Source: Watersipora subatra (taxonomy: Eukaryota). From it: a DNA stretch of 64,000 bases. The position numbers and the translations under genes are program-made. The first letter of the stretch is position 1; each line of letters starts with the position of its first letter. Below the pieces are notes generated by a model. It had not been told where the DNA came from and did no database searches. It saw only the letters and a program-made list of their open reading frames with translations. The stretch covers positions 43,559,910 to 43,623,909 of the forward strand of contig NC_088716.1 in the NCBI RefSeq assembly GCF_963576615.1, written 5' to 3'. Positions 1,158 through 52,010 of this stretch are shown in pieces.

Positions 1158-1241
1158 CATCTTCCTCCAATTCGTGATCGTATGCCATGTAAGGCAGCAG
1201 GTCAAGTTGGAGAGACATCAACAGCTCAGCCATGGTAAGCT
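1158..1241 (-). CDS. PARP4: PARP4-like exon (C-terminal region); the gene continues beyond the window start
   Basis: Acceptor caattttag| and donor G|gtaaga. Translation (E)LTMAELLMSLQLDLLPYMAYDHELEED resembles PARP4 SELIAKEDVDFLPYMSWQGEPQE. Phase matches the previous exon. Confidence 0.7.
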
Positions 1242-2220
1242 CTAAAATTGCACAGCCTGATGAGCAAAATCAAAAAATGAAACGTGACAAATATTAAATT
1301 ATATCCCAAAAAAATAGGATAAAAAAGCATTTGAAAAGAAACCCACAGAAAAACTTCTTAGAAATATCCCAGAGATAAATATATTGATATTTGAAAAGTT
1401 TCAATAGCCCCGCACAAGTTCTGGTTACCAGTTCAGCCAACAAGTTACGAGTGTTTAGGAAGGAGGAACAACAAGTTGCAGCTATATCTACGTGTAGCAA
1501 GAAAATAACTTTTACATCTCTAATGCTGCGCTGGTTGGTCATATATAGGAATCATCTTATCTTGATTTTACAAAGATCAAAAACAGTAAGAAATTTTTCG
1601 TTGCAAGCTTTAAAATCAAGAGCTGCTAAATTTAAATCGATGATATACATGTAATAGAATTTATAGCTCGAACCTCCGAGTTCTAGCTGAACGAAATCAT
1701 TATTTCCTGTTACTACGTAAATAACAGCTATAACTTTGTTTCTGAAAATCAAGATTGAGCAAAAGAAATAATAAGGTATAAAGAGCACAAATAATTAGTC
1801 ACAATGAAAATATGTGAAAAACTAAAATATTACATGAGAATTTTGAACATTATTTTTTAACTAATGAGTAACCGTCAACTAACACCTATTAACGGCCATA
1901 ACTAACATTAACTAAAACTCATTAACTACCATGATCAGCATTAACTAATATCTGCCAACTACTATAACGAACCATGAACTAAGAGTACAAACAAACATGC
2001 ATTATATCAAAGAGTCAAAAGCACAAGTGGTGTCCGATAACTCAATAATTCCCAGTAAGAGTCTGGATTCTCTACAGAAGATTCCCATAATGAGACTGAT
2101 AACTGATCACTGATCTAATACAGTAATCACTCACTACTTCGTGGTTCAGTTTTCACGACTTCATTACATCGCGGGGCAGCTAATAATGAAAAAAGTAGAA
2201 ATAAAAATAACTAAAATATA

Positions 2221-3339
2221 TACAGTGAAACATGGATAACTCGCCCTCGGATATAGCAAACACGTGGTTAACTCGAATGGATTTGCTTGGTCCGTTCCCA
2301 CGCAATGATAAATGGCTCTATATAACTCGAACTCAACACTGTTAATTCGAACTGTCTTTTGCCCAACGGCTACCGAAACGGTTGCTATCGCTTTAGAAAA
2401 TCACTTTATTCAAAGCCACAGAGGTAAACCTCAACTTTTCGTAATTCATAAGCGTCGTTATTACCTCCATCGGCAAAATATTTTTGTCAACGACGTTTCT
2501 AAAGGTTTGGTGAAATTTGATTTATACTGCTATACGATGAATAGCATGCGCGCAAGGATTTTCGCCACGCACATACAAAACAAAAACAGCATGTTGTTTT
2601 TGTTTTGCATTTGCGTGGCGAAAATCCTTAAGTGCGTGACCCGGCTAACCCGTGATGAATAGTTTTCCGACGTTGATTCCGTGTTGAATCAACGTCGAAA
2701 TGTTGAATGTTTAAAACGTCTTAAAAATTGTTGTAATTAAACGTATACATTGTCTTAGCTAAAGAAAACTATTCATCGTTTGACCTAAACACAGAATACG
2801 TGTTTAAATTCAATAAGTATCCATTCAAAAAGCGTGAATGATATACAATGTACCGTAAAACCTCGTAAAACTTTTAATTGAACTGCCTCGGAGTGTTGCT
2901 CTTAACGAATCCCAGGTAAAGTAAGGTAATCTTTGCATAAACATCAAAAAAAATCGGCAAAATTGATCGTGGGTAAAACGCTCAAAAGAAAAAGATGTCT
3001 TTTCTTTTGAGCATTTCAGCAATGATCAAGTTTTGCCAATGTCAATCTAAAAAACGTCCTGGCAATAACATCACCTCAAACAACAAACCAATCTCAAGTG
3101 ATAGAAAAATCTCTATACTTTTTGATAAAAACGTTTTAAACTTTACATTAGAAGCATTTAATTTGAAACAAGCCATTTGTGCTTTTGATTTATATTATAG
3201 TTTGTATATATACATGTATCTACTAATAAATAAGTAAATACATGGACTTGTGACAGTGCTCTGATAACTTGAACGCTCTGATAATTCGAACACTTTTGCT
3301 CGGTCCCTTGAAGTTTGAGTTATCCGAGTTTCACTGTAT
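2221..3339 (+). mobile_element. MITE family 3, copy I (about 1.1 kb TIR element; TIR TACAGTGAAACATGGATAACTCG)
   Basis: 5' TACAGTGAAACATGGATAACTCGCCCTCGG and 3' ...CCGAGTTTCACTGTAT are inverted complements. Colinear with 31456-32402 except for an extra 2520-2900 segment. Confidence 0.8.
2563..2700. repeat. Two hairpin palindromes inside MITE3 copy I (39-bp near-perfect palindrome 2563-2640; 11-bp stem hairpin 2662-2695)
   Basis: AGGATTTTCGCCACGCACATACAAAACAAAAACAGCATG / CATGTTGTTTTTGTTTTGCATTTGCGTGGCGAAAATCCT and GACGTTGATTC..GAATCAACGTC. The segment is absent from MITE3 copy II. Confidence 0.8.
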
Positions 3340-3486
3340 TTAGTTTTTTCAGTCTGACCCTGTAGGATCCACAAGCAATATTGTAATAGCAGTTGAAACG
3401 GTTCGCTGTTTTTTTGCTACGTTTCGTAAAGTGCAAAAGTACTTGTGAAACTTTCCACATGCCCCCTTAAACACTCTTAAACCTCA

Positions 3487-3678
3487 TGATTCTAATGGAA
3501 CAAAGAAAGAGAGGACAATACTTACGATTCTAATGGAACAAAGAAAGAGAGGACAATGCTTACGATTCTAATGGAACAAAGAAAGAGAGGACAATACTTA
3601 CGATTCTAATGGAACAAAGAAAGAGAGGACAATACTTACGATTCTAATGGAACAAAGAGAGGACAATACTTACGATTA
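3487..3678. repeat. 38-bp tandem repeat, 5 copies (GATTCTAATGGAACAAAGAAAGAGAGGACAATACTTAC)
   Basis: Direct repetition is visible. Confidence 0.9.
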
Positions 3679-4279: not shown

Positions 4280-4406
4280 CTGATGTCAGCTGAGACTCGG
4301 GCTCTTCTCCCCTCTTCTCAACAGCAACAAAGCTAGTGAACTGTGTGATTATACTGTACTCCTTGCTCATCTCTATGATTGAGGCTTTCTGTTTCTTCTT
4401 CAATAA
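4280..4406 (-). CDS. PARP4: PARP4-like exon (C-terminal region)
   Basis: Acceptor cttattacag| and donor G|gtagtt. Translation LLKKKQKASIIEMSKEYSIITQFTSFVAVEKRGEEPESQLTS matches PARP4 MKKQTLKSLIIKLSKENSLITQFTSFVAVEKRDENESPF. Confidence 0.85.
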
Positions 4407-4411
4407 CTGTA

Positions 4412-5390: not shown

Positions 5391-5460
5391 AAGTCAAGGC
5401 AACCTGATGATGCTCTGGGCACGAGTGTGACAAAACCATTCACAGACATAGTGAGTTGTA

Positions 5461-5904: not shown

Positions 5905-6066
5905 CTCATGTTCGACTGAGTCAGTAGAGAGACAGCCATTCTCCCAGTCCTGAATAACAGCCCTCGCAGCCAGTCTGTGTATTGTGAGGCCTGTACTTGC
6001 TGTGATGGGGGATGCAGACACAACAGTTGACACCTCCCTCCCATCGATTACAGCTTGTAAAGTCGC
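5905..6066 (-). CDS. PARP4: PARP4-like exon (C-terminal region)
   Basis: Acceptor ctgttgtgcag| and donor GAG|gtgggt. Translation ATLQAVIDGREVSTVVSASPITASTGLTIHRLAARAVIQDWENGCLSTDSVEHE matches PARP4 ATLCALIQEKEFCTMVSTTELQKTTGTMIHKLAARALIRDYEDGILHENETSHE. An alternative acceptor at about 6126 is possible. Confidence 0.8.
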
Positions 6067-9715: not shown

Positions 9716-10670
9716 TTAGGAACCCAAAGACTATCTTTAGGAATAACCCAAAGACTATCTTTAGGAACCCAAAGACTATCTTTAGGAACCCAAAGACTAT
9801 CTTTAGGAATAACCCAAAGACTATCTTTAGGAATAACCCAAAGACTATCTTTAGGAACCCAAAGACTATCTTTAGGAACCCAAAGACTATCTTTAGGAAT
9901 AACCCAAAGACTATCTTTAGGAACCCAAAGACTATCTTTAGGAACCCAAAGACTATCTTTAGGAATAACCCAAAGACTATCTTTAGGAATAACCCAAAGA
10001 CTATCTTTAGGAACCCAAAGACTATCTTTAGGAACCCAAAGACTATCTTTAGGAATAACCCAAAGACTATCTTTAGGAACCCAAAGACTATCTTTAGGAA
10101 CCCAAAGACTATCTTTAGGAACCCAAAGACTATCTTTAGGAACCCAAAGACTATCTTTAGGAACCCAAAGACTATCTTTAGGAATAACCCAAAGACTATC
10201 TTTAGGAACCCAAAGACTATCTTTAGGAATAACCCAAAGACTATCTTTAGGAATAACCCAAAGACTATCTTTAGGAATAACCCAAAGACTATCTTTAGGA
10301 ACCCAAAGACTATCTTTAGGAATAACCCAAAGACTATCTTTAGGAACCCAAAGACTATCTTTAGGAATAACCCAAAGACTATCTTTAGGAATAACCCAAA
10401 GACTATCTTTAGGAATAACCCAAAGACTATCTTTAGGAATAACCCAAAGACTATCTTTAGGAATAACCCAAAGACTATCTTTAGGAATAACCCAAAGACT
10501 ATCTTTAGGAATAACCCAAAGACTATCTTTAGGAATAACCCAAAGACTATCTTTAGGAATAACCCAAAGACTATCTTTAGGAATAACCCAAAGACTATCT
10601 TTAGGAATAACCCAAAGACTATCTTTAGGAATAACCCAAAGACTATCTTTAGGAATAACGCAAAGACTAA
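9716..10670. repeat. Minisatellite of about 40 units with two alternating unit lengths: 23 bp (CCAAAGACTATCTTTAGGAAC) and 26 bp (with a TAA insertion)
   Basis: Direct repetition is visible. It lies about 45 bp downstream (in gene orientation) of the donor of the exon at 10717-10887. The ORF-track ORF 9679-10773 is an artefact of this array. Confidence 0.95.
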
Positions 10671-10716: not shown

Positions 10717-10887
10717 CATAAAGCAATTCGAAGCAAAGCCATAGACAACAATCCGATTGCCATTGAACACTGAAGGAATAGAGGCTGGTGCCTGAAGTGG
10801 TGCAGGCATATCCGTGTTCTGCTCCTGCCATATTACCTTAACCTGAGATAGCAAGGGTTCCCCTGCCTTCTCAACAACCTCTTTGAT
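10717..10887 (-). CDS. PARP4: PARP4-like exon (post-VWA)
   Basis: Acceptor ttcttatag| and donor ATG|gtaggc. Translation IKEVVEKAGEPLLSQVKVIWQEQNTDMPAPLQAPASIPSVFNGNRIVVYGFASNCFM matches PARP4 ...VKWQQLNPDAPEALQAPAQVPSLFRNDRLLVYGFIPHCTQ. Confidence 0.8.
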
Positions 10888-11157: not shown

Positions 11158-11257
11158 CTGTTTGTACCACTTAGACTTAGAGCTAGAATTCAGGTACTCC
11201 ATGGTACCGGAGCCAACTCTAGCAAGCTCCCTCATAATGAACCTGTTGGCGTTTGCG
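11158..11257 (-). CDS. PARP4: PARP4-like exon: VWA domain end
   Basis: Acceptor catcttgtag| and donor CAG|gtaggc. Translation (S)ANANRFIMRELARVGSGTMEYLNSSSKSKWYKQ matches PARP4 STANRHVLRILSQCGAGVFEYFNAKSKHSWRKQ. Confidence 0.8.
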
Positions 11258-13075: not shown

Positions 13076-13186
13076 CTTAGTGCCAAAGTGAAGAGTCGAA
13101 TGGTGCCATACATAGAACTGACAGCCTGGAGCGTTTCTCTAGGATGTGTTATATGACCATCTGATATGACCACAACATTACGGTGC
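13076..13186 (-). CDS. PARP4: PARP4-like exon: VWA domain (DG motif)
   Basis: Acceptor acgtgcag| and donor AG|gtagtg. Translation (L)HRNVVVISDGHITHPRETLQAVSSMYGTIRLFTLAL resembles PARP4 SRNILLVSDGHLQDESLTLQLVKRSRPHTRLFACGIG. Confidence 0.75.
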
Positions 13187-13446
13187 CTGCACGTGTCCGT
13201 CAAAATAGAAATATTTGAGAGAGGAGTGAGCAAGTCTGTATTGCCCTGTCTGCTTTTCCTCGTCTAAACATATACATTAAAAACAGATGTAAGGCATTTC
13301 TCAAGTAAATACAAAATAAACTATCATTAAAATCATATTCTTTTGTGGTAGAAAAGCCTTTAAAGTTGCTACTTCTATAGCGTGTGATAATGTGACCAAA
13401 AAACACATAAATAATTAGAATGAGTCAAGTGTCCGGAGCAGCTAAC

Positions 13447-14153: not shown

Positions 14154-14227
14154 CTGAATGTAAGAAATGGCCCGTGAAATGTTAGACCTGCTAGCAGGCA
14201 TAGACTTCTGAAACAACTCATCATATG
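14154..14227 (-). CDS. PARP4: PARP4-like exon: VWA domain
   Basis: Acceptor ttgttgtag| and donor CAG|gttagt. Translation (T)YDELFQKSMPASRSNISRAISYIQ. The phase-1 start matches the previous exon's overhang (GS-T-YDEL versus human FGTGYKELF). Confidence 0.6.
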
Positions 14228-14845: not shown

Positions 14846-15032
14846 TTGATCCAAAGGCAATCAAGTTGAAGGAGGAGGACTTGCTAAGAGCGGAAAGTAG
14901 AACAAGAGTGACCTTTTTGGCAGCAGAAAGTTCATCAGCAGACATGGAATTGCTCAAGTCAAGCATGATTATCATCTCGTAGTTGGCTTGAGTCGCGCAG
15001 TCAAACTCCGGATAGAAAGTCAGCATGCATGC
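14846..15032 (-). CDS. PARP4: PARP4-like exon: VWA domain start (MIDAS motif DxSxS)
   Basis: Acceptor cacttttag| and donor A|gtgagt. Translation ACMLTFYPEFDCATQANYEMIIMLDLSNSMSADELSAAKKVTLVLLSALSKSSSFNLIAFGS resembles PARP4 EACMLVFQPD...VIICLDCSSSM...NIIQFGT. Confidence 0.85.
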
Positions 15033-17601: not shown

Positions 17602-17742
17602 CTGTTCTGACTCTGGTCTATCAGTGTGCTTCTCAATGATCATCCTAGGCACATGTATTTCAGCCAATGAAATGGTCAGCACAAAACCATCAGCCAATGA
17701 CTGGTCAGGTTGCATTTCGACCATCGCTTGCAGTTGTGTTTT
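17602..17742 (-). CDS. PARP4: PARP4-like exon (VIT-VWA linker)
   Basis: Acceptor tgttttag| and donor CAG|gtttgc. Translation KTQLQAMVEMQPDQSLADGFVLTISLAEIHVPRMIIEKHTDRPESEQ resembles PARP4 RTDCKAVISTMEGSSLDSSGFSLHIGLSAAYLPRMWVEKHPEKESE. Confidence 0.75.
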
Positions 17743-22042: not shown

Positions 22043-22171
22043 CTTAATGAAAATATTATGTGTGGGACTGCATATCTCCTGAATGTCAAAAGGCATCTGC
22101 ACTGAAACTTGCACTCCGCAAGTCACATCTTTCATCTTGGAGCTGTCCACACCGATCTTCTGAAGGGTAGA
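22043..22171 (-). CDS. PARP4: PARP4-like exon: VIT domain, C-terminal part
   Basis: Acceptor tgttcacag| and donor AAG|gtaagg. Translation STLQKIGVDSSKMKDVTCGVQVSVQMPFDIQEICSPTHNIFIK resembles PARP4 ...SLTMSIEMPYVIEFIFSDTHELKQK. Confidence 0.75.
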
Positions 22172-23009: not shown

Positions 23010-23174
23010 CTGCGTAGCTGCGGCTAGAGCTTGTTTAGAGTTCCACGGGGCTATATTTGTAGGCAGCTCAAATGTGAACTTGCCATCAGAGACTGAGAGT
23101 TCACAGACATAGGTAATCTTGATGAGCACTGTGCAGTAGGGTGGAAGATTACCTACACTCACAGTGAATACATC
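23010..23174 (-). CDS. PARP4: PARP4-like exon: VIT domain, central part
   Basis: Acceptor ttttag| and donor CAG|gtaaaa. Translation DVFTVSVGNLPPYCTVLIKITYVCELSVSDGKFTFELPTNIAPWNSKQALAAATQ matches PARP4 DVFTVSVGNLPPKAKVLIKITYITELS....PATVAPW. Confidence 0.9.
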
Positions 23175-28110: not shown

Positions 28111-28335
28111 AGGCCTTTCCTTGTCCTGCACCATGAGGTAGGCACCGTGCCCCTCACTCACTGCTTGTCTATATTCCTTTTGCGCCTTCTCTTTTTCCTT
28201 CACCTCTCCCACAATGTGTTTATTATTTATAAAAGCCTCAAATCCACAGACGGCTGCCATCTCAGTTAGCGGAAATACAAATTTAGCTTCAATGGCATCA
28301 GGGCTCTCATTCCGGTAGCGCTGAAGCACCACTAC
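28111..28335 (-). CDS. PARP4: PARP4-like exon: VIT domain, N-terminal part
   Basis: Acceptor aatatttag| and donor |gtgagt. Translation VVVLQRYRNESPDAIEAKFVFPLTEMAAVCGFEAFINNKHIVGEVKEKEKAQKEYRQAVSEGHGAYLMVQDKERP is near-identical in pattern to PARP4 VPIEAKYIFPLDDKAAVCGFEAFINGKHIVGEIKEKEEAQQEY..AV.QGHGAYLM.QD. Confidence 0.9.
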
Positions 28336-28484: not shown

Positions 28485-28609
28485 CTCTGCAGCCGTATCT
28501 ACCAGTTTAGCTCCTACTTGCAGCTCGGATAGAGGGATGGGCACCTGGTTGTCCCCTTCCACTTGAAGTCCAGGAAGCACATCAGCCAACTTAATATCGC
28601 TGACATCAT
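28485..28609 (-). CDS. PARP4: PARP4-like exon (pre-VIT linker)
   Basis: Acceptor tcctcattcag| and donor GAG|gtaagt. Translation (D)DVSDIKLADVLPGLQVEGDNQVPIPLSELQVGAKLVDTAAE resembles PARP4 AGLQDASGNLVPLEDVHIKGRIIDTVAQ. The ATG at 28643 lies in an upstream region with an in-frame stop, so it is not taken as exonic. Confidence 0.65.
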
Positions 28610-30178: not shown

Positions 30179-30353
30179 CTATAATAGCCTGAGTAGCTGT
30201 CTTGTCATCTTCCCATGGTCGGCTATCTTCAATGTTTTCAAATGAGCTGTCAGTTAGAGCTTTTACACCAGCCTCTCTGTCCGCTCTAGTTGTATAGCGT
30301 ATGACATATCTCAGCGCCTGTTGCTTTGTACTGTACACGCAGTACTCATTGCT
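30179..30353 (-). CDS. PARP4: PARP4-like exon: C-terminal strands of the PARP domain
   Basis: Acceptor ttttctacag| and donor G|gtcagt. Translation SNEYCVYSTKQQALRYVIRYTTRADREAGVKALTDSSFENIEDSRPWEDDKTATQAII resembles PARP4 EDDEFVVYKTNQVKMKYIIKF. Confidence 0.7.
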
Positions 30354-33566: not shown

Positions 33567-33741
33567 CTTAAAGTCGCCGGACCTGCTACCTCCTTCAGCC
33601 ATAACGCTGTCATATCCGGTGGGAGGCTCAACCAGACCGGGCATTTTAGCCGTGGTTGTGAAGCAACTACCTGTTACCACTTCGCATACAAGCATCAGCC
33701 GCGAATTATCTGAGGAGCAACTAGAGAACCTGTGGCTGGTT
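33567..33741 (-). CDS. PARP4: PARP4-like exon: PARP catalytic core (catalytic Glu)
   Basis: Acceptor tctcttgtag| and donor AAG|gtacct. Translation (R)TSHRFSSCSSDNSRLMLVCEVVTGSCFTTTAKMPGLVEPPTGYDSVMAEGGSRSGDFK matches PARP4 ...TRLLLIC[E/D]VALG...APPGYDSVHGV...TTDF. Confidence 0.85.
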
Positions 33742-34544: not shown

Positions 34545-34643
34545 CGAAAATCATCGGCAAAGTAGATTCCATTTCCAAGATCTCCCGCATCCGTTCTTTT
34601 TCCTCCGAAATCTTCCACGACATGCTTAGGAAGAAGAAGACCT
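34545..34643 (-). CDS. PARP4: PARP4-like exon: PARP catalytic core (nicotinamide-stacking Tyr, GIYFAD)
   Basis: Translation GLLLPKHVVEDFGGKRTDAGDLGNGIYFADDF matches PARP4 GLLLPKVVEDRGVQRTDVGNLGSGIYFSDS. Donor CG|gtaata. Phase 2 at both ends, consistent with its neighbours. Confidence 0.8.
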
Positions 34644-34689: not shown

Positions 34690-35215
34690 CTACGATAAGC
34701 AAAATCAAGTGTTTGTAGTCTAGGTTAGACTAGCCTAGGTTAGACTAGCTCTGTATCTTTATCACAACTTCTACCTGCATGAATACTAGTCTAGGTTAGA
34801 CAAGTCTAGGTTAGACTAGCTCCGTATCTCTATCACAACTTCTACCTGCATGAATACAAGTCTAGGTTAGACTAGCTCCGTATCTCTATCACAACTTCTA
34901 CCTGCATGAATACAAGTCTAGGTTAGACTAGCTCCGTATCTCTATCACAACTTCTACCTGCATGAATACTAGTCTAGGTTAGACTAGTCTAGGTTAGACT
35001 AGCTCCATATCTCTATCACAATTTCTACCTGCATGAATACAAGTCTAGGTTAGACTAGCTCCGTATCTCTATCACAACTTCTACCGGCATGAATACAAGT
35101 CTAGGTTAGACTAGCTCCATATCTCTATCACAACTTCTACCTGCATGAATACTAGTCTAGGTTAGACTAGCTCCGTATCTCTATCACAACTTCTACCTGT
35201 ATGAATACAACATCT
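34690..35215. repeat. 60-bp tandem repeat, about 9 copies (TAGTCTAGGTTAGACTAGCTCCGTATCTCTATCACAACTTCTACCTGCATGAATACAAG)
   Basis: Direct repetition with occasional unit doubling. It lies in the intron between the exons at 34545-34643 and 36541-36672. Confidence 0.95.
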
Positions 35216-36400: not shown

Positions 36401-36540
36401 TAAAATTATTATAATTTTATTAACTAGTTGATATTATTAAACGTCTCCAGTACAATCGAGGTCTGCAACTAAATTCTACCAAACCAAACTGGCAGAGACA
36501 AATACATAGATTCATAAACAATGACAATAATGAAGCTACC

Positions 36541-36672
36541 TGGATAGAATGCCAAGGTAATTCTCACGGCTAGATGAGTGATAGAGGAGTTGTCTTTGCT
36601 TGCCATCTTTCGGGAGATGCTCTGTCGGTCGTGCCACAGCAAATACCTCACTAATGACAATATCCTCCTCAC
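36541..36672 (-). CDS. PARP4: PARP4-like exon: start of the PARP catalytic domain (H-S-S motif)
   Basis: Acceptor ttttttgcag| and donor AG|gtagct. In a frame different from the ORF-track frame it gives (G)EEDIVISEVFAVARPTEHLPKDGKQRQLLYHSSSRENYLGILS(R), resembling PARP4 PVDVLQIFRVGRVNE...RPLLHGSPVQNIVGILCR. The junction to the next exon yields GILSRGLLLPK, matching human GILCRGLLLPK. Confidence 0.7.
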
Positions 36673-38127: not shown

Positions 38128-38273
38128 CCGCTTTCGATTTCTTTGACGAGCTGGGGCCAATTTTGTTTTTCACATTCAGCAACGTGGCAGTTGAGAGACC
38201 GGAGTTTCGTAGTGATGTCACACTCTAGATTCCAATCCGTAGCCTCTCCAACACTCAACAAGTCATACAGCAG
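38128..38273 (-). CDS. PARP4: PARP4-like exon (regulatory region)
   Basis: Acceptor tcctag| and donor GG|gtattt. Translation LLYDLLSVGEATDWNLECDITTKLRSLNCHVAECEKQNWPQLVKEIES resembles PARP4 SLAKYRALRCKIEHVEQNTEEFLRVRKEV. Confidence 0.7.
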
Positions 38274-39358: not shown

Positions 39359-39510
39359 TTGCAGCACACAAAACTTCTTGCTGATGGACATGAGGTTATC
39401 GAGCCTGGAGTGTGTTTCATCCTGGCAAGGAAGGATGCTGTAGAATTCCTTTACAAGTTCTGAGTTGTTTCGACTTTCTTTAAAATTCTCTTTTATCTCG
39501 ATAAGAATTC
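39359..39510 (-). CDS. PARP4: PARP4-like exon (regulatory region)
   Basis: Acceptor ttttaatag| and donor CAA|gtaaga. Translation (G)ILIEIKENFKESRNNSELVKEFYSILPCQDETHSRLDNLMSISKKFCVLQ resembles PARP4 ...TEFYRLIPHK...LLAKKADLCQLI. The phase-1 start matches the previous exon's 1-nt overhang. Confidence 0.7.
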
Positions 39511-39917: not shown

Positions 39918-40071
39918 CTTCCGCTTGTTCAACTGTTGCCTTGGACAGATCACTCAATGGGATTGACAAGTGCTTCGCCACTTCGCCTACCGCATCAGCC
40001 CACACGGTGTGTACGAATGACTTGACCATGCTTGTCAATTCCCTGCACGAAGTGGCCCATGTGAAGAGAGC
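39918..40071 (-). CDS. PARP4: PARP4-like exon (PARP helical/regulatory region)
   Basis: Acceptor ctttgtttag| and donor |gtatgag. Translation ALFTWATSCRELTSMVKSFVHTVWADAVGEVAKHLSIPLSDLSKATVEQAE resembles PARP4 VEMIWAEALGHLEHML...ISLNDVSKAEG. Confidence 0.7.
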
Positions 40072-40859
40072 CTAAACAAAGAGATCAAATGTGAATGTTT
40101 ACAACCCTGCAATTACAAAACAGGAAACAAAGAATATTCAAAGAGAAGATAAATTTTCACAGAAAGTAAACACAATATTATTCAATAAATTATTACTTTT
40201 ATCTAAGCTAAAAAGACTAAGAAATTAAAAATTGTATTGAGAAATTTTGTTATTTCATACCAATCAATCTTTTTAAGAATGCTCGCTCAACCAATCAAAA
40301 CTTACCTTTTAGTTGCTTAACCTATGAACTGAAAGGGCAATTATAAGAATTATAAAAGGTTCACTTCTAAGTGAAAGTTTCTGGGAAAATACAGAATAGC
40401 ATATCTAAAATTACACACATGATTTTAAATGTGATGTTGATGAACTTATAATGTACGCCAATATAATGTACCATAGAATCAACACTGTTAACAATAGTTT
40501 TCAATAAAAAATATTTACATTAGAAATCTATTGTTCTTTTGTATTTGTTTCAGCCGAAATATACAGAAAAATGAACAAAGTTATTAAATGCGAACACTGT
40601 AAACGCCGTAAAGAAATCCGGACCTTTCATTGGTCAATTGATTTGAACTAAACGCTCTGGAGTTTGTGATATACTCATGAGTTTCACAAGGCAGCAATTT
40701 GAGATATGACATCGTCAAGGTAGTCAAGTACAGAAGTATTCTAAGTGAATGGGCTAGATATGAGCGCTAACTTTTTTGTAGCCCAGGCATATGACAACGG
40801 CAATAGTAATATAACACTAGTCAGTTTAACATAACATTTAAAGAAAATCCCATCGTGAG

Positions 40860-40965
40860 CGTTAAAAAAGAGGATTGCACTGCATGGGAATCAAACCCAT
40901 GATATTCAGATTCTCATTCAAGCAACCTACCACATGCTCCACTCGACCTACCACCTGCTCCACTC
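40860..40965 (-). other. tRNA-derived SINE-like element (minus strand) with T-arm GGGTTTGATTCCC and a terminal oligo-T
   Basis: Minus strand ...GAATATCATGGGTTTGATTCCCATGCAGTGCAATCCTCTTTTTT. Upstream GTCGAGTGGAGCA(G/T)GTGGTAGG is duplicated. Confidence 0.35.
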
Positions 40966-43006
40966 GACCACCTTTGCACATGTAAGAATAATTGTGAATA
41001 TAGTTAAGCATAACGACCTCTCACGTCACGCAGCGCTGCCAGCATACCAATTTACAATAAAAACTTAGTCTTTATATACAAAGATTGTTCAACTCTTCAA
41101 AGTCAAAACACATTTTCAAAAAAAATTGAAAGTCGACATGGATATGTATAATCTTTCATAACTTGAAAAGTAATTGGTATTTCTTTAAACGGAAAATTGC
41201 ATTTTCTTCAGCACATCTTCTTTTTAATGACGACTAGCTTTACTAAGTTTTTCTATTCCATAATAATGAAAAAAAATGGTTTAGAGATATAATTTCTAAA
41301 CCGCCCTAAATTGCAGAAAATCATTGGCTATAAAAAGACAAAAATAATGTTACACATGTTTATGACCTCTCATGTTAGCCATGTACATCATAGTGAGCAC
41401 TGAAACCTTGTCATCATAATAGCTTTATTATTTTGCATTACAGAGGACATGTTTCCATCAAACACCACGAAGAGATATGAGTAGGATTGTGGAAGTTGTA
41501 TGATGAATGCTCTTTTACTTTCGTTAATGCTTTGAGTGAGGACACTCTTTGTAAGTTTGTACAAAATAAAAGTGTTGATTTGTTCTATTTCTAAGCAATT
41601 TAAAAAAGTCATTTCTAGACCTAATACTAACTGAGAAAATTCGGAAACTAAAAGCGCTCATAAAAATGATAGTTGGGTAAGGGTAATTTACTAGCCAGAT
41701 CAGTTGATCAAACACTTTGCTAAAACGCTTTTACTTGGTTGCAGCAGAATCAGGAACTCCTGAAGATTTCGAATAACAAAATTCACATCGATTGTGTGGC
41801 TCGTTTCACAGCAATAAGAAAAATTAAACCGGATACTAAGCTCTGGTAATTTAGCCTTCGTTTTTTATTGCCGATATTGGAAAAATAATAAAACCACTAT
41901 TTTGCTGACATAAGATTTCAAATAGAGTGTATCTTGTAGATAATTTGCGCCGAACACAGCTAAAAATAATTATTTAGCTACCATTAGTGGTTGCTATGCA
42001 ACAAAATGAACTACGCAATGCCAGAAAGCCGCATGGTGCGACCTGCCGACTTTGAAAGAGTTAACTTATTTTTAAATTTTATCTTTTAAATTTTAACTCT
42101 TTCGCTATTGTTAAAGCGTTTGCGCATGGTCAAGAGCCTCATTATCCGGCTTTTGTAAGCTTCGAACAATACGTTTCTGATTAGTGAGTAGTTGATTAAT
42201 TACCCAATCGTATCGTATCTGTACTTTAACGAAAGGAAAGAATTATCTGCATGCGTTGAGCCAATAGAAAATATGTTTAAAACCCGTCCTGAGCATAGCT
42301 TGACTTTACAGAAACTTTCTTTTGTATCGCAATTTCTTCTTGGCAATGACCAGTTGTGTCAGACCCATTAGAGCTACGAAGGTTTCTCTCATTTTAGATC
42401 TTTGGGTTTTGGGTGACTTTTATTGAACAATAGGACTACTGAGAGTGATTATTTTATTTTTAGGAGCAATAATAATAATAATGCCGTAAGCCGTAGCATT
42501 ATTGATAAATCGTGCGACTTGAACATGCTCAAAGCCGCAGTGAAAATGGTCGAAAGAGTGTCGGAGTTCATTCTGCAACATACATGTATCTGTGGTATTA
42601 TCAATCGCATTGACTGATGTTAAATTTTATGCTGATTAATTTGGTATCAAAATATATTTTATAGACCGTGTGGTTCAAATGCTATGACAGCGTATACGCA
42701 CCCTTATCAAATATTAGGTTTTACTAAATATGTAATTATGCCACAGTAAAAAAAATTAATTTGGAAGCAAAAGTTAATGTTAGTTTTCATGTATTAATAT
42801 ATATATATATATATATATATTATTACATGGAAACTAAAATAACACTAAATATAGAAAACATATTGGACAATATTCTAAATTTATTAAAAAGTAATAATGG
42901 AAATGGATACACAGGAAATAAAGACAGAAGCAGCAAAAACAGAACAGAAAGGTTATGTTGTAGTTATTGTTAGAAAAGTTACAAAAGTGATTGTGTAATG
43001 CCACAC

Positions 43007-43162
43007 CTGAATGAGCTTTGGTGATCCTCTGCGTACAGGGATGTAGCTCATGCGAGAATAGCCCAAGTTGTACTCATTGTGAGCACAGAGGCTAGCAAAT
43101 AATAGCTCTGCCTGAAAAGGCCCATTAGCCTCTCTTACTTCTGTGGATGAGCTCTCCTTTTT
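43007..43162 (-). CDS. PARP4: PARP4-like exon
   Basis: Acceptor ttctacag| and donor CAG|gtgtgg. Translation KKESSSTEVREANGPFQAELLFASLCAHNEYNLGYSRMSYIPVRRGSPKLIQ (52 codons, phase 0/0). Confidence 0.6.
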
Positions 43163-44189
43163 CTGTAGAACAAACAGGCATTAAATAGCTGTACAAAGTT
43201 TTCAGATCAAAACATTTGAAAAAGAAACTTCTACTTATGACAGCTAACATAAACTGACATAATTTTATTACGACTACACATAAAGATCATTGAACTAAAC
43301 TTTTAAAATTTCTATAACTCTAATTTCAAAAAGACTTCTTGATACCGAATAAATCATTCAGGCCAGTAAACAATTGGGGTAAAGTAAGGAGTTAAACCAG
43401 AAATTCTAGAGCAGCACCATCTGATACACTAGCACTTCCGATACAACAGGCTTATTTACAACAGGCTCGTTTACCCTTTCAACTCAAAATTGTCTGGATA
43501 AATTTTTAAAAAAGATTTCAAAACACCAAAAACAAAAATTCAAAATTGTGAATTTTATCTCAAAGCTTATAGTGAAGGTAGTTTTCTGCCCATGTGCTAT
43601 GTTAGAGGGTTGTCTTAACTGGGTCATAGTAAATTACTCAGTATTCTAGCGGCAATGTAAGGATGGCATCCCTAACATTGGTAAAAACCTGTGTTAACCC
43701 GAAAGCTTTACCCACATTTAAAACTACATTTTGCAATTCGGGTTTAATTGTGTTTGTGATAGCTATTCCACTGCCATATTTTCACATCCAATAAATTTGC
43801 AAACTAGCCAAGTCTTACAAAATACTTTTCTTGCAAAAATAATTGTGCTCATAAGAAACCTTGAGGAATGGCAGATAAGCAACACAAAGTTCATAAACAA
43901 AAGCGATACGAGTCAGGTTTCACACGGCCCAGCATAAAATTATCAGACATATTTCAAGGCTACCAAACGCTTGACTTTGTTTGTCAGGACAATAACACTT
44001 CAGAAAAGATTTAGTAACAATGTTTGAACACACCTGCCTTGAGGCATGATTGTAGCTATGGCCTTTTTGACTAAATTACAAAAATAAGGATTTAGATTTC
44101 ACTTCTAAAAAGTAAGACAAGTCCAAGTCTATATAATATCATCAGTGATCAGAATATTATACATATATGTATATGTTTTGTGCCAACAT

Positions 44190-44195
44190 ATGTGT

Positions 44196-44256
<61 letters not shown>

Positions 44257-44260
44257 CATT
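44190..44260. repeat. (TA)n microsatellite of about 60 bp; a shorter (TA)n at 42785-42820
   Basis: Visible. Confidence 0.95.
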
Positions 44261-44496
44261 TATATGTATGCGCCATATATATATATGTGTCATATATATT
44301 TGCGACATATACATGTATATTTGTGCCATATATATGCATGCCAAATACATATACTGTATATGTGTGTCACATCTATATCAGGGCCAATAAACAAAATAAG
44401 GTTATTATTAATCTTACATCAACATTTATCTCTGAATTCTCTAAGGAAGGGTAAAGGTCAAGCATATTTTTCCGCATTGTTTGAATAAGATTACAG

Positions 44497-44650
44497 AACG
44501 AGTTATTTTAACCAAGAGTAAGTTATTTTAACTAAGAGTAAGTTATCTTAACCAAGAGTAAGTTATTTTAACCAAGAGTAAGTTATTTTAACCAAGAGTA
44601 AGTTATTTTAACCAAAGTTATTTTAAACAAGAGTAAGTTGTTTTAACCAA
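44497..44650. repeat. 21-bp tandem repeat (ACCAAGAGTAAGTTATTTTAA)n, about 7 copies
   Basis: Visible. Confidence 0.9.
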
Positions 44651-45780
44651 GAGTAAGTAACACCATAAAATCACTTGTAATAAATGTTCACCAGGCGTAT
44701 GCTAAAGCAGTTGTACAGAACTATATGGAGTTCAATCATACAAACATATGCAAACAATACATCTATACAAACATATGGAGTTCGATCTGACAGATTTAAT
44801 AGTATTATTACTATTAAGCTAGCTTTTAACTAGGCCAAATCAATTTATGAGCTGGGCAGTGTATTATTACCCAGTCTTCTAGTTGAAACTTGACTCAGAA
44901 AGTAAAATAATTAGCTAAAAACCTGCTTCTACTGATATAATTGCCAACACAATGGACAGACTTTAAATCTTCACTGTCATTCATTCCCCATCATTAGTTT
45001 GCATTAGTTTTTAAATCAAAAAATTTGCTACTTGAAAATTCATCATTTAGTTTTGCGAATCAAACTTCTGTGAAACATCAGTAAAAAAATGATTTAAAAT
45101 TTTACATTTAAACTGAATTAGAAAAAGAAAACAAATTTTTCTCTCTATACACTGAAAATCCCAGTTTACAACTACTCTACATATGAATCTCTTGAGATAT
45201 GATGTACAAGTGGACAAACATTTAGCAATCAATCTTCATAAAAAAAAGATTTAAATTAATTAGTTTTTGTTTTAGCATAAATCAAAATAATGAAAAATTC
45301 CAAGTTTCCAAAATTTTGTAGAAGCGCCATTTTAAAATTTCAAAAATGGTTTAAGTTTGAGGCACAAAGTTAATCAATTATCATGATATGATGGACGAGA
45401 GTAGAGAATTAATTTAGATCAAGAAAAACTAGCACCATATCACCTGTTCCATGTCACGATATGATGTTGGGAAAAGATAGCATCATACGGGATTCGAACC
45501 AGCAGAACCACAGAATTCAGCATCATCGGACAGCACGCTACTACTTGAGCCAATAAGTTACCTTCACATACTAAAGTATTATTGTACATATACAAGCAGT
45601 TATAAAATGCTTTTTATCAGCCTGCCTGACGATTGCTCTCGGCACCCGAGACTGCCAGAGTACTGTGCGTAACGACAGTACCGTATTATCTTATCCAGCG
45701 ATGATAACTATTGATAGTCGCAATAAGTATTCACACTTCATAGCACAGTTATAGCTCTAGAGATTGTAGTCATGGATTAC

Positions 45781-45873
45781 CATGTCAGGGTAGTGCTGGG
45801 TAGTGACTTTGAACTCTTTCTTGTCGCTGTCCGTCAGGAGAACATGAATCTCAAGAACGCACAGCTCTCCATT
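45781..45873 (-). CDS. PARP4: PARP4-like exon
   Basis: Acceptor gatctgcag| and donor ATG|gtaatc. Translation NGELCVLEIHVLLTDSDKKEFKVTTQHYPDM resembles PARP4 EAVVVELQCSRDSRDCPFLISSHF. Phase 0 at both ends. Confidence 0.6.
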
Positions 45874-46879
45874 CTGCAGATCATTAACACTTTTGAGATA
45901 GAATGAGAATGAAAAAAAATCACTACTAATTTACACAAAATACACACATGTATGTTACCAGTATGCCGTATACTGCATACATAATCTTTCTGAAGTATAC
46001 AATGAATAAGGCAGAAAACTACATCAGGCAAACTAAACATTTTAGGTATATTACGGAAAGTGATGAGAGGAGAGGTACACACAGGCGTAGAGAGACTCAC
46101 ATAAATCTTGTAAAATTACAAGGAATGTCTGGTTAAGAGGAAATTATACGTTACTGACAATAGAGAGCTAGCGATACAGAAAGAGATGGAAACTTCTGAG
46201 AGAAAAGGTAGACTCGTGAGTCTGTGAGACTCGTGAGTCTATGCCTCTTGGCGATTGGATGAACAAATCATAAAACATCGGAATAGTTATAAATAAACCA
46301 ACCAGATTTTGGAATCAAATAATTACAAAAACTAACACGGTGATTTTGCATACACGAGCAAATTTACATAAGGTATAGGAGACTATGAAACTTATACCTG
46401 CAATCGAGCATTTATTAACATTATGTGATCAAAAATATATTCCTAGGATCACATGCTAAAAACCCGCAACATTAAACATCCATAAAAGTGGCTAGTAATA
46501 GATGCTTAAAATTTTCTAAATTGAGTGATTAAAGAACTGGGCATGCATTAACAGCGTGCAGTCGGGTGGGAGGCGGGGTTGAAGTTAGATTATTGTGACC
46601 TCATGCTAGAAATACAACAATCAACAATGCTTTAAAGGCAGCCACCCACTACGGATATGATCTACAGTCCTGATAGAATCGCGAGGTGACCAACTTTGCA
46701 CATATTACGTACTTGATTATCATGGAAACTAGTTGAATTGTAGTGATAATAATTTTCACAAGCAGCCACAATATTGGAGATGGTTGGAAAGTTGTGAAAC
46801 TATGTTCAATATTCTATTTTTTCAACTTTATTTCTGTTTAACTTATTTCAAAAAATAGGCTAATAAGAAACTGTATTAC

Positions 46880-47028
46880 CTTTTTGTGCTGGAATGCCCA
46901 TTTAGGCACTCTATATCTTTTGGGTTCATCTATATAGCCTGTGTACCTATCATCCGTATAGCTTGGAAAGCTTTTCCAGTCTACTGAGCTAGGCAGCAAG
47001 GTGTGAGCAGCTTTGCTCTTGGTATTTC
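46880..47028 (-). CDS. PARP4: PARP4-like exon (linker after BRCT)
   Basis: Acceptor ttttcaaag| and donor AAG|gtaata. Translation (G)NTKSKAAHTLLPSSVDWKSFPSYTDDRYTGYIDEPKRYRVPKWAFQHKK. Phase is compatible with its neighbours. The region is divergent and homology is weak. Confidence 0.5.
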
Positions 47029-48565
47029 CTTTGAAAATATGTAATTGCAAGTCTGTGGATTACCTCAATCAGAGAAAGAAAGTTGATTTGTCAATTCTTT
47101 TTAAATTGAAGGCAGAATTAGGGAAAGTGAAAGGCTGCAATGTTAAACCAAAATGGTCAACACGAGTAGGTTAGTTTACTAACACATAGCCATAGACATC
47201 TAAGCTAAAGACTTGTAATTGAGCACAGAGAAGTAATTTACACATCTCTTCATTTCTTACAATTTATTAACAAAACTAACAAACTTTGACAGCCTTTGTA
47301 TAACATTTGGTATTTCTTGTAGGAACTGAGTGTATAATCAGAAATTGTGTGCACTTGTACTGATAAAATCTCACTGATTAATAACGCTAGTACATAGTCA
47401 AATTTAAAAACCTTGTTTATCAAGGCACTCTTAGATTCCATTTGAGAAGAGGCTACAAACATTGGGTACATATAACATTCCAAGTTAAGTCATGCAACAT
47501 TTACAAATGTAGAATTACACTTGGGGATGGGAGGCGCAAAGACTCATGCTGACTGCGGATATGCGGAGGCACTAACGACATACTCTTGAAAGCGTTCTAT
47601 AAATGTTATCGGAATCATCTACAAATGTTCCTTCACTTGACAGAGTAATTACTACGTCCGCCCATCGCTTATTATTAAAAGTTGCTAAAAGTAGAGGATA
47701 GCTCCAAGCTCATGGGCACCTGTAAGCCTTACACTTGGAAGTCTAGTCATGTGTATACACAAGCGTGTCCCCAGATCCTAGACAGTATTAACAAGTTTCC
47801 ATCAACTATGAAAAACCTATAATAGCACAATCTCTCTCGAACCGAATACCATTTTTAGGATTCAAACATGTAGAACCAAAAAAAACAAAATCAAGAAGAA
47901 TAGTTTTTATTCACACTCTTTCAAAGAAGGGATATTTTAGATGTAACTGAAGATACATAATGATTGCAGTACACTGAGTCTGATAGATAGCGTATAGCAA
48001 ATAAAGTTAGAGTGTGTAAGATCTATCGGAGCTAAGAGTGTGTAAAACAATAGTTGTAGTTTACAACTATTGTTGCTGAAGAAACAAGTTTTCCAGCTTT
48101 TTCCATTTTTGATTTTCATTAAAAAGAATTCTAATCAGTGTGTCATTAGAGATTAATGTTCTGTCAGTTGCCATTTTTCATTTCTCAGTCAGTTAGAAGT
48201 GTCTTTTGAAGTCGGCAATATGTCAAGAAGTAATAGTCCAACTGACTTGGAAATCATATTGAGAACATATTAAGTGGAAAGCAACGAAGATTCCATAACC
48301 CTACGTAAACCGGAAGTACACGGAAATAAAGCAAAACTACGCAGGCGAGTTTGCTTGGGCGTAGAATCAGGGGGAAATGATTCCCTACATGATCTCAGAC
48401 ACAATCTTCAAAGTGTTAAAGATTACATATTGCGGACCGCAGGTCAAACAGTTATTTTATGGTTTTACATAGTGAATCTGCATGATCTTTTAATTACTTG
48501 GGTGGAAACACAATCTTCTGGGTGACTTATATTAATGACACTTACATGTGAATATTGTAACATAC

Positions 48566-48761
48566 CAGAAATCTTTCCTGACTGTAGTTGATTCACCAGA
48601 CGCTGCCCAAATATCATATAGTCATCGTAATGTTTCAAGCTTCCCTGCGCAATGCTGTCAGTAATGTATGTCAAGTCTAATACAGGGATAGACAAATCCA
48701 ATGCTCTCTTGCATTTGTATGACTCTTTGTGTGTGCTGTCGGCTAGGATAACAGCATCAAC
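48566..48761 (-). CDS. PARP4: PARP4-like exon: BRCT domain
   Basis: Acceptor ttgaacag| and donor |gtatgt. Translation VDAVILADSTHKESYKCKRALDLSIPVLDLTYITDSIAQGSLKHYDDYMIFGQRLVNQLQSGKIS is a BRCT pattern. Phase 0 start joins exon 1 (...HILRKE|VDAV). Confidence 0.75.
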
Positions 48762-51369
48762 CTGTTCAAACCATAAAGTTGACAGTCAAAAACAAAAACA
48801 AACATTCGAGGACAAAAACACAGATTCAGGGAGTTATGAAGGGTGAACGGTGCTGATCACAAAACTATCGAATAGGTTTCTCTGCAGCCGCAATGCTGAG
48901 TCAGAAACATGCAATTAACCAATGTATGTTGGTGTCGTATCTACTGTAAACCGAAAAACTTCGCTTTGTTGCGAAAATGTTATATTCGAGTTTTTCCAAG
49001 CCTGCGCTCCTTAAATTGGCATTTGAGCGGTTATTATATAAACGATAGTCATAAAAAATTGTTTCTTCATCCCAATTAACCTAAGTGGATAGTAATGTTT
49101 ACCCAGGCTCGAGTTTCCTACCAGAGAGTCAGAGACCTGAGAAATTGAGCACTCTGCCTCAAGATCTTAAACATTGCCAATAGTAGACTTTTCTGCAACC
49201 CGTTTGTGTTGACTGTCGCCGGTTAAATGTTGCCATCCGGTCACAATTCTTTACTGTATACATATGAACTAAAGAGAAAGCTCAATGTAAACTATATCGA
49301 CAGATATACACAGAGTAGTAGAGCTAAAACTAATTCATAAGACATTTCTTCTCGTATTCTTCACACTCATGTGATAGAAATCTGTTTTAAAAGTTTAAAA
49401 AGAAATTTAATTTTCATTACATTCAATATCAAGATTTATTCCCTCTCTGCTGCATGTATGGCAATTTATTCTGAACCAGATTTATCCTGGTACTAATTAT
49501 ACTATGACCATCTGCGCATGACATTTGGCACAGAATCAATTGTGGCTGCATGCTTTTTATCACTACCAATGGTCCTCTTGTGATTTGAACCACTGACCTA
49601 CTGATAACATGCCAGTGTACTAACCACTGAACCACCGCTGCTAAAGATTTAGTAGGTTCAGTTTTATTGTCCATCTTTAGAGTTCTATTTTCATGAGTTG
49701 CCATGGAAACGAGACACTATCTCCCATATCAGGCAGTGCCACTACACATGATTCAGCACTGTTATTTTTATTACTATCGCTCGCCAAAACTCATGAAACG
49801 CAGCAAAATGTCAGTTAAATATTATCTCTTTTAAAAAAGTGATTGCTTTTATTGACGCCTCAACATCCTTAATAGTCTGCTGTTGTTTAGCTATGCTCCA
49901 ATGCTGACAGAGCTCTTAAACTTAATTCTATCAACAGTCAGCAGAGGATCTTTATTTAGCTGCACTTTTTTTGACCTTGACATCATAGCTCAACAAATCA
50001 AACATGTAGATAATGGTTTTTGTTAAAGATCGGTAACACTAGACACCAGTTACTACTATAGCCTAGTGAACCTTGGCAGCGTAATGAAATGATGATGTTA
50101 TCATCCAGTGTAGCAACATAGTAGTACCAGTGGAGCCAGTAATGTTAGAACCATAGAGTCAAGGCCCAACTAAACTGGGTTATCTTAGACAGATTGACTG
50201 CCCTTGTAGGCAGAACCGATTGTGGAATTTTCATTGAGGAAGCTAATTTGCAACCTCTTAAAAGCCTGGTGATTCGCCAAGAGCACTTGCGCAACAACAA
50301 TACAGCTTGCAAAACTTGTCAGGCCATATCACCAATTTTATTACACGCAAATTGCTGATAACAAATATTTACCTCAATCCGATTTCAGAGTAACTCCACT
50401 ATGGTACTTGAGTGACTAAACAGGTCAATGCATAGCACTGACACAATGTGAACATATTCAACACATCCTTCTGATGACATTACCATTTGGTTGAGCATGT
50501 TGGTAATGCTTCAAACGGCTTTTTGCTTTGCACAATGTTTAGATATGAAAGCGATTGACTCGTTTTTAAAAATATGGAGATGATAAGCATTATTTTCATG
50601 ACTATCAGAATAGAGAAGCTAACATTGAATACGTGACTTCATTAGCCAATATATTGCCAGTCCGGCTGTGATTATAGGACGGTTTATATCACCTACGTCT
50701 AGAGTTCATATTCCTTACGCGTAGAGAGGATACGATTCAGGTACATTATACGAATCCAAATTTAATCGTGTATCTCTCATAATCAAAGCAGGCTTATGAC
50801 AATTTTCCTTGGGTGGAGTAAATGATACCGGGGTTGAGTAGGGTCGTAATAGTTTCATCCCAATGCATCATCAAAAGCCATAGCCTGAGATTTTTAAAAG
50901 TAAGTTGAATGTTCGTGGTCTAAAATAATAGAACGCGTATTTTTATTTATAGCAAAATCATTCAGGGAATACTAAATTTATTTATTGGATTCATTCATGG
51001 ACCATTGATTGAGTAATTACTATATTGATAAGAGGCAAGTAGCGGATAACTCCAAGTTTTTAATGATGCATAGTACTACAAAAATGATTAAAGTATCCCA
51101 TTTTATGGACGACATAAATTTATGGTTTGGCCATGTTTTGTCACGCGCATCTCTCTAGGGAACATGTAGGAAGTCTAAAAGCACCGTTAAAAATACTATC
51201 TATAGGAAAATTAGGCTGAAAATATCGACATACACCATCGACCTAGTCAGCTACTAAAGCATCGATACAATGCTGCACGCCAAACAAAAGCGCCATAAGA
51301 ATGGCCTGTGAGACTGAGAAACTTTAGTTGCAAAATCTGCTACAAAATTGCAGAACAGAAAGTTCTCAG

Positions 51370-51620
51370 CTGTTTCTCTATGGAATAAACAAAACAGGAA
51401 GTCCTAAGATTTTTCTCTATGGCGTAAACAAAACAGGAAGTCCTCAGAGGTTTTTCTATAGGGCAAACGAAACAGCAAGTCCTCAGGTGTTTTTCTATGG
51501 GTTAAACAAAACAAGAAGTCCTCAGATGTTTCTGTATAGAATTAAAAAAAACAGGAAGTCGTCATACGCTTCTCTATGAGGTAAACAAAACAAGGAAGTC
51601 CTCAGAGGTTTCTTGATGGA
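51370..51620. repeat. Tandem repeat of about 41 bp, about 6-7 copies (AAACAAAACAGGAAGTCCTCAGAGGTTTTTCTATGG...)
   Basis: Visible direct repetition with point variants. Intronic, between exons 1 and 2. Confidence 0.9.
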
Positions 51621-51882
51621 ATAAACAAAACGCTTTACCAACATAATTGTTTGAAAGTTTTAAATTAAAAACATCACATCAGTTGATAAGTGTGTCGTAG
51701 CCACATTTTCTTGCAATATAATGAGTGGCGAAGAAGAAGAAGAAACATTAATACTTTGACTTTTTAAATGCTCGATTAAAATTAAATTATGATGCCACAA
51801 GTTGCAAACAAAATACTTAGCTGGTTTTGGCTAAAGCAGTAAAATGACCCGTGGTTACACAATGCGAAGGCACAATGATTAC

Positions 51883-52010
51883 CTCTTTTCGAAGGATGTG
51901 GGAATACGTTCCACCATTAGCAGTTATGTCACTTCTAATCTTTTGCTTAAGATGAAAGGGTGTAGTGAGAGCAAACTCCACATAAAATATCTTATTTTTA
52001 AACACGCCTT
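51883..52010 (-). CDS. PARP4: PARP4-like exon 1 of those resolved (N-terminal start of the BRCT region); the 5' boundary and start codon are unresolved
   Basis: Minus-strand translation ...GVFKNKIFYVEFALTTPFHLKQKIRSDITANGGTYSHILRKE followed by a GTAATC donor. It aligns to the PARP4 N-terminus (GIFANCIFCLKVKYLPQQQKKKLQTDIKENGGKF). There is no in-frame ATG in the ORF (the ORF-track M is TTG). Confidence 0.5.

Follow-up and report, generated by a model that had tools for sequence, protein, structure and literature searches.

The combination of a BRCT domain, a mid-placed catalytic domain, a VIT domain and a vWA domain is the architecture that defines the vPARP clade (PMC2964712). In human PARP4, the vault PARP, the documented N-terminus consists of BRCT, WGR, a helical domain (HD) and an ADP-ribosyltransferase (ART) domain (PMC12212138, PMC10450202), and a divergent WGR between the BRCT and the HD is a feature of PARP4 (PMC10450202, PMC12212138). 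Annotated orthologues that share this architecture already exist for animals ranging from sponges to mammals (PMC2964712, and the relatives found here). The locus described here lies in a 64,000-nucleotide stretch of Watersipora subatra DNA (RefSeq assembly GCF_963576615.1, contig NC_088716.1, forward-strand positions 43,559,910 to 43,623,909). This whole stretch is referred to as the window, and all coordinates are counted from its first base. With a high degree of confidence, positions 52011 to 1158 on the minus strand represent the 5' part of a single, apparently intact metazoan PARP4 ("clade 5" PARP) gene. Sequence comparison shows a real but ordinary gene, whose spliced product is a PARP4 orthologue, as had been proposed by an earlier reading made without database searches (hereafter the sequence-only reading).

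The identity of the product is clearest from its domains and its closest structural matches. On the full model, Pfam returns BRCT, PARP_reg (weakly), PARP, VIT and VWA, in that order. The BRCT_2 (36.5 bits, cut-off 27.3) and BRCT (29 bits, cut-off 21.3) profiles cover residues 3-91, the PARP catalytic domain reaches 80 bits (cut-off 26.7) over residues 395-521, VIT reaches 122 bits over residues 612-724 and VWA_3 reaches 68 bits over residues 866-1017; BRCT_2, PARP, VIT and VWA_3 all exceed their Pfam cut-offs. The PDB comparison, for which a 1,068-residue version of the model lacking three linker exons was used, matches full-length human PARP4 (PDB 11jf_P, 9bw6 and 9bw7) with E = 5.8e-204, collinearly over human residues 4-95 and 257-1217, and matches both subdomains of the PARP4 HD-ART crystal chain 8sx1 with E = 2.7e-46. 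The best matches other than PARP4 are ITIH4 (8.5e-12) and PARP1 (1.3e-8). The BRCT of the product aligns to human residues 4-95, and to many relatives from their residues 2-4 onward. The orthology claimed in the sequence-only reading is thus borne out, as is the check that it proposed: searches with the joined protein find Pfam BRCT, PARP, VIT and VWA, with PARP4 as the best match. Its domain order also stands, with weak PARP_reg support, except that a putative divergent WGR-like domain had been left out.

The catalytic and metal-site residues are retained. The His-Tyr-Glu (H-Y-E) triad is kept, with LLYHSS, GNGIYF and SNEYCVY aligning with human LLHGS, GSGIYF and DDEFVVY, and the DxSxS metal-site motif of the VWA domain is kept as DLSNS, which aligns with human DCSSS. 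From N- to C-terminus, the model encodes a BRCT, a linker that resembles a divergent WGR, the helical (regulatory) domain of PARPs, an ART fold with H-Y-E, an ITIH-like VIT and VWA region with DxSxS, and the start of a C-terminal tail. By homology to human PARP4, the product would most likely be an NAD+-dependent (mono-)ADP-ribosyltransferase whose BRCT domain binds nucleic acid; its expression and enzymatic activity are likewise inferred.

All eight motif peptides quoted in the sequence-only reading are found in the window, all on the minus strand and in N- to C-terminal order from 34.6 kb down to 1.2 kb: GLLLPKHVVED (34610-34642), PPTGYDSV (33603-33626), the 29-residue AAVCGFEAFINNKHIVGEVKEKEKAQKEY (28171-28257), DVFTVSVGNLPP (23139-23174), VLIKITY (23109-23129), IHRLAARAV (5956-5982), ITQFTSFVAVEKR (4311-4349) and DLLPYMAY (1180-1203). 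The likeness to vertebrate PARP4 that had been claimed for them is real when they are set against the solved human chain, with ITQFTSFVAVEKR identical at 13/13 positions, DVFTVSVGNLPP at 12/12, VLIKITY at 7/7, the 29-mer at 25/29, IHRLAARAV at 7/9 and DLLPYMAY at 5/8.

The gene model obtained by guided protein-to-genome spliced alignment has 25 exons and runs from 52011 to 1158. The aligner was a purpose-written dynamic programming procedure that allows GT..AG introns and explicitly tracks phase and split codons. Three sources of guides were used: 39 partial PARP4-like proteins from a first database search; 20 full-length relatives, for the N-terminal part; and human PARP4, with a guide sequence that agreed with the solved PDB chain in all the stretches compared. 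The joined coding sequence (CDS) in the window is 3,634 nt, or 1,211 codons, without a stop, where a random path of this length here would be expected to meet about 77 (probability of none, about 3e-35). Exons range from 74 to 225 nt. The 24 introns, of 149 to 4,936 nt, are GT..AG and phase-matched throughout. With the Nematostella guide, spliced alignment scores 1851 on the real strand, while the opposite strand reaches 346 and the reversed sequence 336.

Several dimensions in the sequence-only reading need correction. Of the 26 exons that it counted, without giving an exon list for comparison, 25 are modelled in the window and a twenty-sixth is not demonstrable; the CDS measures 3.63 kb instead of about 4 kb, and with a span of 50.85 kb the model stays short of the 51 kb that it was said to exceed. 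Its description of the junctions as canonical and phase-matched holds for 24/24, but its view of this as a strong internal check does not. In the linker interval (40043-48565, 8.5 kb), de novo enumeration yields 38,220 GT..AG chains that are consistent in phase. With more than 38,000 such chains arising by chance, a phase match by itself is a weak check and junctions are convincing only where homology reaches them.

The BRCT is split over two exons that can be read directly. Exon 1 (51883..52011; like all exons, on the minus strand) encodes its first half; its 5' boundary is open, and it ends in phase 0 at the donor CGA AAA GAG/gtaatc (51883), which is used by 13/20 guides. Exon 2 (48566..48761, phase 0 to 1) encodes the second half and begins at the acceptor tttgaacag/GTT GAT (48761), likewise with 13/20 guides; its donor at 48566 is placed by 7 guides, and the alternative at 48542 by 6.

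The interval between BRCT and HD is unconserved with respect to human PARP4. The human linker and WGR (residues 96-262) found nothing better than E = 3.3 when compared by tblastn with both strands of 40.0-48.6 kb, and when the N-terminal half was used to look for homologues, just five matches came back, none of which covers the linker. Enumeration alone left the matter undecided, since all 38,220 chains show the same negligible level of similarity to human PARP4. The 20 full-length guides converge on three mutually phase-compatible exons and on the acceptor at 40071. These are exon 3 (46880..47028, phase 1 to 0; acceptor 4 guides, donor 3), considered probable; exon 4 (45781..45873, phase 0 to 0; donor 7/20 guides), considered confirmed; and exon 5 (43007..43162, phase 0 to 0; donor 7 guides, acceptor 4 and a further 3 nearby), which runs from the WGR-like linker to the HD start and is considered probable. 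All three are among the top four candidates by a homology-free coding and splice score, with exon 5 ranked first (score 19.0) and exon 3 fourth. Against a profile hidden Markov model (HMM) built from the BRCT-to-HD interval of 39 relatives, the joined linker peptide gives E = 3.9e-10 over HMM positions 18-151 of 160, nearly end to end. Among 402 six-frame open reading frame (ORF) segments compared with this profile, the exon 4 segment is the sole individually significant one (E = 1.3e-5), and the exon 3 segment ranks third, at the correct upstream HMM position, with E = 1.3 alone. Of the 26 blocks given by the human-guided alignment, four (49080-48909, the extension 48565-48469, 37801-37778 and 43162-43074) had been forced into the linker, which is unconserved, and were discarded.

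The helical domain and ART are encoded by the next seven exons. Exon 6 (39918..40071, phase 0 to 1) belongs to the helical domain; its acceptor at 40071 replaced one at 40042, being preferred by 9/20 of the closer guides versus 6, and its donor is placed by 18/20. The helical domain continues in exon 7 (39359..39510, phase 1 to 0), for which both boundaries are placed by 20/20 guides, and in exon 8 (38128..38273, phase 0 to 2; acceptor 20/20, donor 19/20). The ART starts in exon 9 (36540..36671, phase 2 to 2; acceptor 15/20, donor 7 guides), which carries the catalytic His in LLYHSS, and continues through exon 10 (34545..34643, phase 2 to 2), with GLLLPKHVVED and the catalytic Tyr in GNGIYF, and exon 11 (33567..33741, phase 2 to 0; boundaries with 14 and 13 guides, canonical splice sites), with PPTGYDSV. 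Exon 12 (30179..30353, phase 0 to 1; 14 and 10 guides) ends the ART and carries the catalytic Glu in SNEYCVY. From 36.7 to 10.7 kb, identical exon boundaries are obtained from 7-39 independent guides, with polypyrimidine-AG acceptors and GTRAGT-like donors.

The connection between the ART and the VIT is the place where the locus could be divided into two adjacent genes, one encoding BRCT and PARP (52.0-30.2 kb) and the other a separate VIT-VWA protein of the ITIH or VWA5A type (28.6-1.2 kb). VIT-VWA proteins without a PARP domain do exist, VWA5A among those described (PMC10450202); ITIH1 and ITIH4 are matched here at 1e-10 to 1e-12; and the link between the halves is drawn from genomic sequence. 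The connecting exons, however, form one stop-free and phase-matched frame. Exon 13 (28485..28609, phase 1 to 0) is the ART-to-VIT connector, with a GAG/gtaagt donor that received 23 guide votes versus 10 for 28481, and it follows exon 12 (30353-30179) and precedes exon 14 (28111..28335, phase 0 to 0), the VIT exon containing the 29-residue motif, whose acceptor is placed by 25 guides and donor by 39/39. Joining 28485 to the acceptor tttag/GTA at 28335 reproduces human DTVAQVIVFQTY without a gap; the phase 1 junction 28481/28331 was rejected in favour of 28485/28335 on account of the GTAAGT donor, the votes (23-25 versus 10) and this gap-free match. Alignment to human PARP4 (residues 545-640) and to full-length relatives is unbroken across the junction, and in the full-length relatives the VIT exon falls at about residue 630-760, behind a PARP half at the N-terminus. 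The VIT-VWA part is also far more similar to PARP4 than to ITIH. An independent ITIH- or VWA5A-type gene was accordingly rejected, as the BRCT and PARP exons join the VIT-VWA exons in frame and phase and collinearly with PARP4, and a division into two genes is regarded as highly improbable.

The VIT continues in exon 15 (23010..23174, phase 0 to 0; acceptor 39/39, donor 18 guides), with DVFTVSVGNLPP and VLIKITY. The ITIH-like region then extends over exon 16 (22043..22171, phase 0 to 0; 16 and 24 guides) and exon 17 (17602..17742, phase 0 to 0; 24 and 22 guides). The VWA domain starts in exon 18 (14846..15032, phase 0 to 1; 22 and 10 guides), which carries DLSNS, continues in exon 19 (14154..14227, phase 1 to 0; 9 and 7 guides) and exon 20 (13076..13263, phase 0 to 2; 7 and 8 guides), and ends in exon 21 (11158..11257, phase 2 to 0; 8 guides at each boundary). 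The last four exons in the window were obtained with the human guide, and this part was re-checked against the solved human PARP4 chain (E = 3.7e-42 over human residues 1048-1217), so that each is backed by the PDB alignment. They are exon 22 (10717..10887, phase 0 to 0; acceptor also placed by 7 guides), in the ITIH-like region; exon 23 (5905..6066, phase 0 to 0), with IHRLAARAV; exon 24 (4280..4406, phase 0 to 1), with ITQFTSFVAVEKR; and exon 25 (1158..1241, phase 1 to 1), with DLLPYMAY, which is aligned to human residue 1217. The terminal exon stops at 1158, where the sequence-only reading had placed its end, with the donor GAT G/gtaaga. As it ends in phase 1, the CDS must run on past the start of the window, which had also been anticipated. 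The part of the gene in the window, about its first two-thirds, is equivalent to human residues 4 to about 1217 (of 1724).

At the 5' end, the BRCT frame is open upstream to 52125, with a stop at 52126-52128, and contains no in-frame ATG. The sole nearby ATG (gcaaacATGg, 52056..52058, minus strand) lies in a good Kozak context, closely preceded by an acceptor-like site, and its frame is off by one base from that of the BRCT exon. At the position of the relatives' Met (MGVF...), a Lys is read in the window (...PAKGVF), and a single A added to the A4 run (52052-52049) would restore MGKRTRSQQKEEELPAKGVF... in frame. The out-of-frame ATG may reflect a homopolymer error in the assembly, an upstream coding exon (with a possible splice into 52063) or a real lesion. 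Guides with N-terminal extensions indicated no consistent upstream exon. A 35-nt GT..AG mini-intron (52042-52008) that would restore MGKELGVFKN... was rejected because of its poor splice sites, donor and acceptor alike, and because no intron in the gene is shorter than 149 nt.

These same features would also fit a unitary pseudogene or a 5'-damaged copy of PARP4, in which the start codon was lost when one nucleotide was deleted directly after the ATG (52058-52056) and the gene is decaying or untranslated: its only ATG, well placed as it is, is out of frame, the frame lacks a start back to the stop at 52126-52128, and the Met of relatives is replaced by Lys. Such decay is difficult to reconcile with 1,211 stop-free codons where about 77 stops would be met by chance, with 24/24 canonical introns, and with retention of both H-Y-E and DxSxS; a missing base in an A4 homopolymer is moreover a common assembly error, and an upstream coding exon spliced into 52063 may also exist. 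A damaged or decaying copy is thus considered very unlikely.

Other observations also weigh against an intact, completely modelled PARP4 gene. PARP_reg reaches only 21 bits (residues 278-348), below its Pfam cut-off of 26.8, and Pfam WGR is not detected in the full model. The exons at 47028-46880 and 43162-43007 are collinear with the linker profile, but neither is individually significant against it, and alternative splice sites exist at 48542 and 40042. No relative with more than 50% identity was found among the database matches. Finally, the model is built from genomic sequence and homology. The absence of an in-frame start codon belongs with these points.

The nearest relatives agree with this reading. 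All 20 that were checked by name are annotated as PARP4, PARP4-like or "poly [ADP-ribose] polymerase", or are unnamed predictions. PARP4 annotations from molluscs, amphioxus, cnidarians, echinoderms, a sponge and vertebrates make up the nearest relatives, with 40-45% identity. An exhaustive search for relatives, with the exact 75-residue VIT exon as query, recovered many full-length proteins; the exon 14 product is 62-77% identical to full-length PARP4 relatives of 1,100-2,500 amino acids, with matches usually starting at about residue 630-760. In a distance (neighbour-joining) tree, the product lies on a long, weakly placed branch outside the vertebrates, grouping with Hydra in 54% of bootstraps, with molluscs in 11% and with vertebrates in 8%. 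The product is most likely a non-vertebrate animal PARP4 without a close relative in the libraries searched.

The sequence-only reading had taken the presence of PARP4 to imply vault particles. This is a plausible extrapolation, which published data weaken for non-vertebrates. The animals in which the vPARP architecture occurs were reported to be the ones that have vaults; a vPARP-like protein is absent from some organisms with vaults (PMC2964712). In human PARP4, docking to MVP is performed by the MVP-interacting (MINT, or MVPID) domain at residues 1562-1724 (PMC12280208); the CDS in the window ends at about human residue 1217, and the MINT region would lie beyond it. In the alignment of that study, the PARP4-contacting residues of MVP are conserved in vertebrates only, and PARP4 has been suggested to be a late joiner of the vault (PMC12280208). 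An Rfam scan of the window found no vault RNA and no other family. PARP4 presence by itself does not establish vault particles, least of all outside vertebrates.

If the MVP contact residues are conserved only in vertebrates, an intact and constrained PARP4 here would point to a vault-independent role. One could accordingly imagine a non-vertebrate PARP4 without a close sequenced relative in which the triad and the ITIH-like region are intact, the N-terminus is unusual or damaged, and a BRCT-WGR-CAT-ITIHL core (CAT, catalytic; ITIHL, ITIH-like) has a conserved role apart from vaults, or in which the out-of-frame ATG is real and goes with an unconventional start or a recent inactivation. This is a speculative proposal and an unlikely one.

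The window is eukaryotic nuclear DNA, AT-rich (about 36% GC), with many tandem repeats and retroelement ORFs, and the PARP4 introns are full of tandem and dispersed repeats. Upstream of the gene and on the same strand lies a degraded gypsy-like long terminal repeat (LTR) retrotransposon (55700-59400), with a CCHC zinc knuckle, RVT_1, RT_RNaseH and rve in broken frames. A degraded non-LTR retrotransposon (a long interspersed nuclear element, LINE) at 59900-62300, also on the minus strand, retains pieces of Exo_endo_phos_2 and RVT_1 over several frames. Two PARP4 introns contain, in the same orientation and with 89-97% identity, copies of a roughly 1.1-kb dispersed repeat (2221-3339 and 31456-32403) that is probably a non-autonomous transposable element. 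A 24-bp minisatellite of about 41 copies (9721-10669) starts 48 nt downstream of the exon at 10887-10717 and yields spurious ORFs of 345-364 amino acids on both strands. Inside the 4.9-kb intron, a 617-bp TC/GA-rich low-complexity tract, (TCTCCCTC)n at 26114-26730, yields false Glu/Arg/Gly-rich ORFs of 200-270 amino acids and probably helps to make the GC skew strongly negative at 24-28 kb. Other intronic tandem arrays are found at 37-259, 21277-21688, 34716-35210, 3488-3677 and 51354-51631, with periods of 15, 34, 56/71/127, 38 and 39 bp, respectively.

As an annotation this is routine, and it matters little beyond correct annotation of the gene. Its useful outputs are a curated 25-exon model and a flag on the 5' end, which lacks an in-frame ATG, maybe through a homopolymer assembly error. 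The abundance of chance phase-consistent GT..AG chains in long introns also calls for caution with gene models built by eye.

Among known systems, ITIH1, ITIH4 and VWA5A have the VIT and VWA (ITIH-like) region in common with it (PMC10450202), but lack BRCT, HD and ART, and their similarity is about 190 orders of magnitude weaker than that of PARP4. PARP1 shares the BRCT-WGR-HD-ART module, of which the WGR is putative in the window product, and H-Y-E (PMC10450202, PMC12212138), and is matched in its HD-ART part at 1.3e-8, whereas the window product has no zinc fingers and carries VIT-VWA after the catalytic domain. Human PARP4/vPARP (UniProt Q9UKK3; PDB 11jf, 9bw6, 9bw7, 8sx1 and 8swy) shares the domain order BRCT, putative WGR-like, HD, ART, VIT and VWA, as well as H-Y-E, DxSxS and several identical or near-identical motifs. 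The overall identity to the human protein is nevertheless just about 38-40%, and the product does not group with vertebrates. Of the vault-RNA-binding lysines in the human BRCT (PMC12212138), K23 is kept in the window product, while K24 is replaced by Q and K31 by T in the alignment, and a counterpart of the human MINT domain would be encoded outside the window. The best overall matches, with 41-45% identity over about 913 aligned columns, are the invertebrate PARP4 and PARP4-like proteins of Lottia, Potamilus, Biomphalaria, Saccostrea, Magallana, Mytilus, Branchiostoma, Nematostella, Hydra, Antedon, Lytechinus and Sycon. These begin M-x(0-3)-[VIL]-F, where the window product has no in-frame Met, and they have the BRCT at the extreme N-terminus, as the window product does, and the VIT at about residue 630-760.

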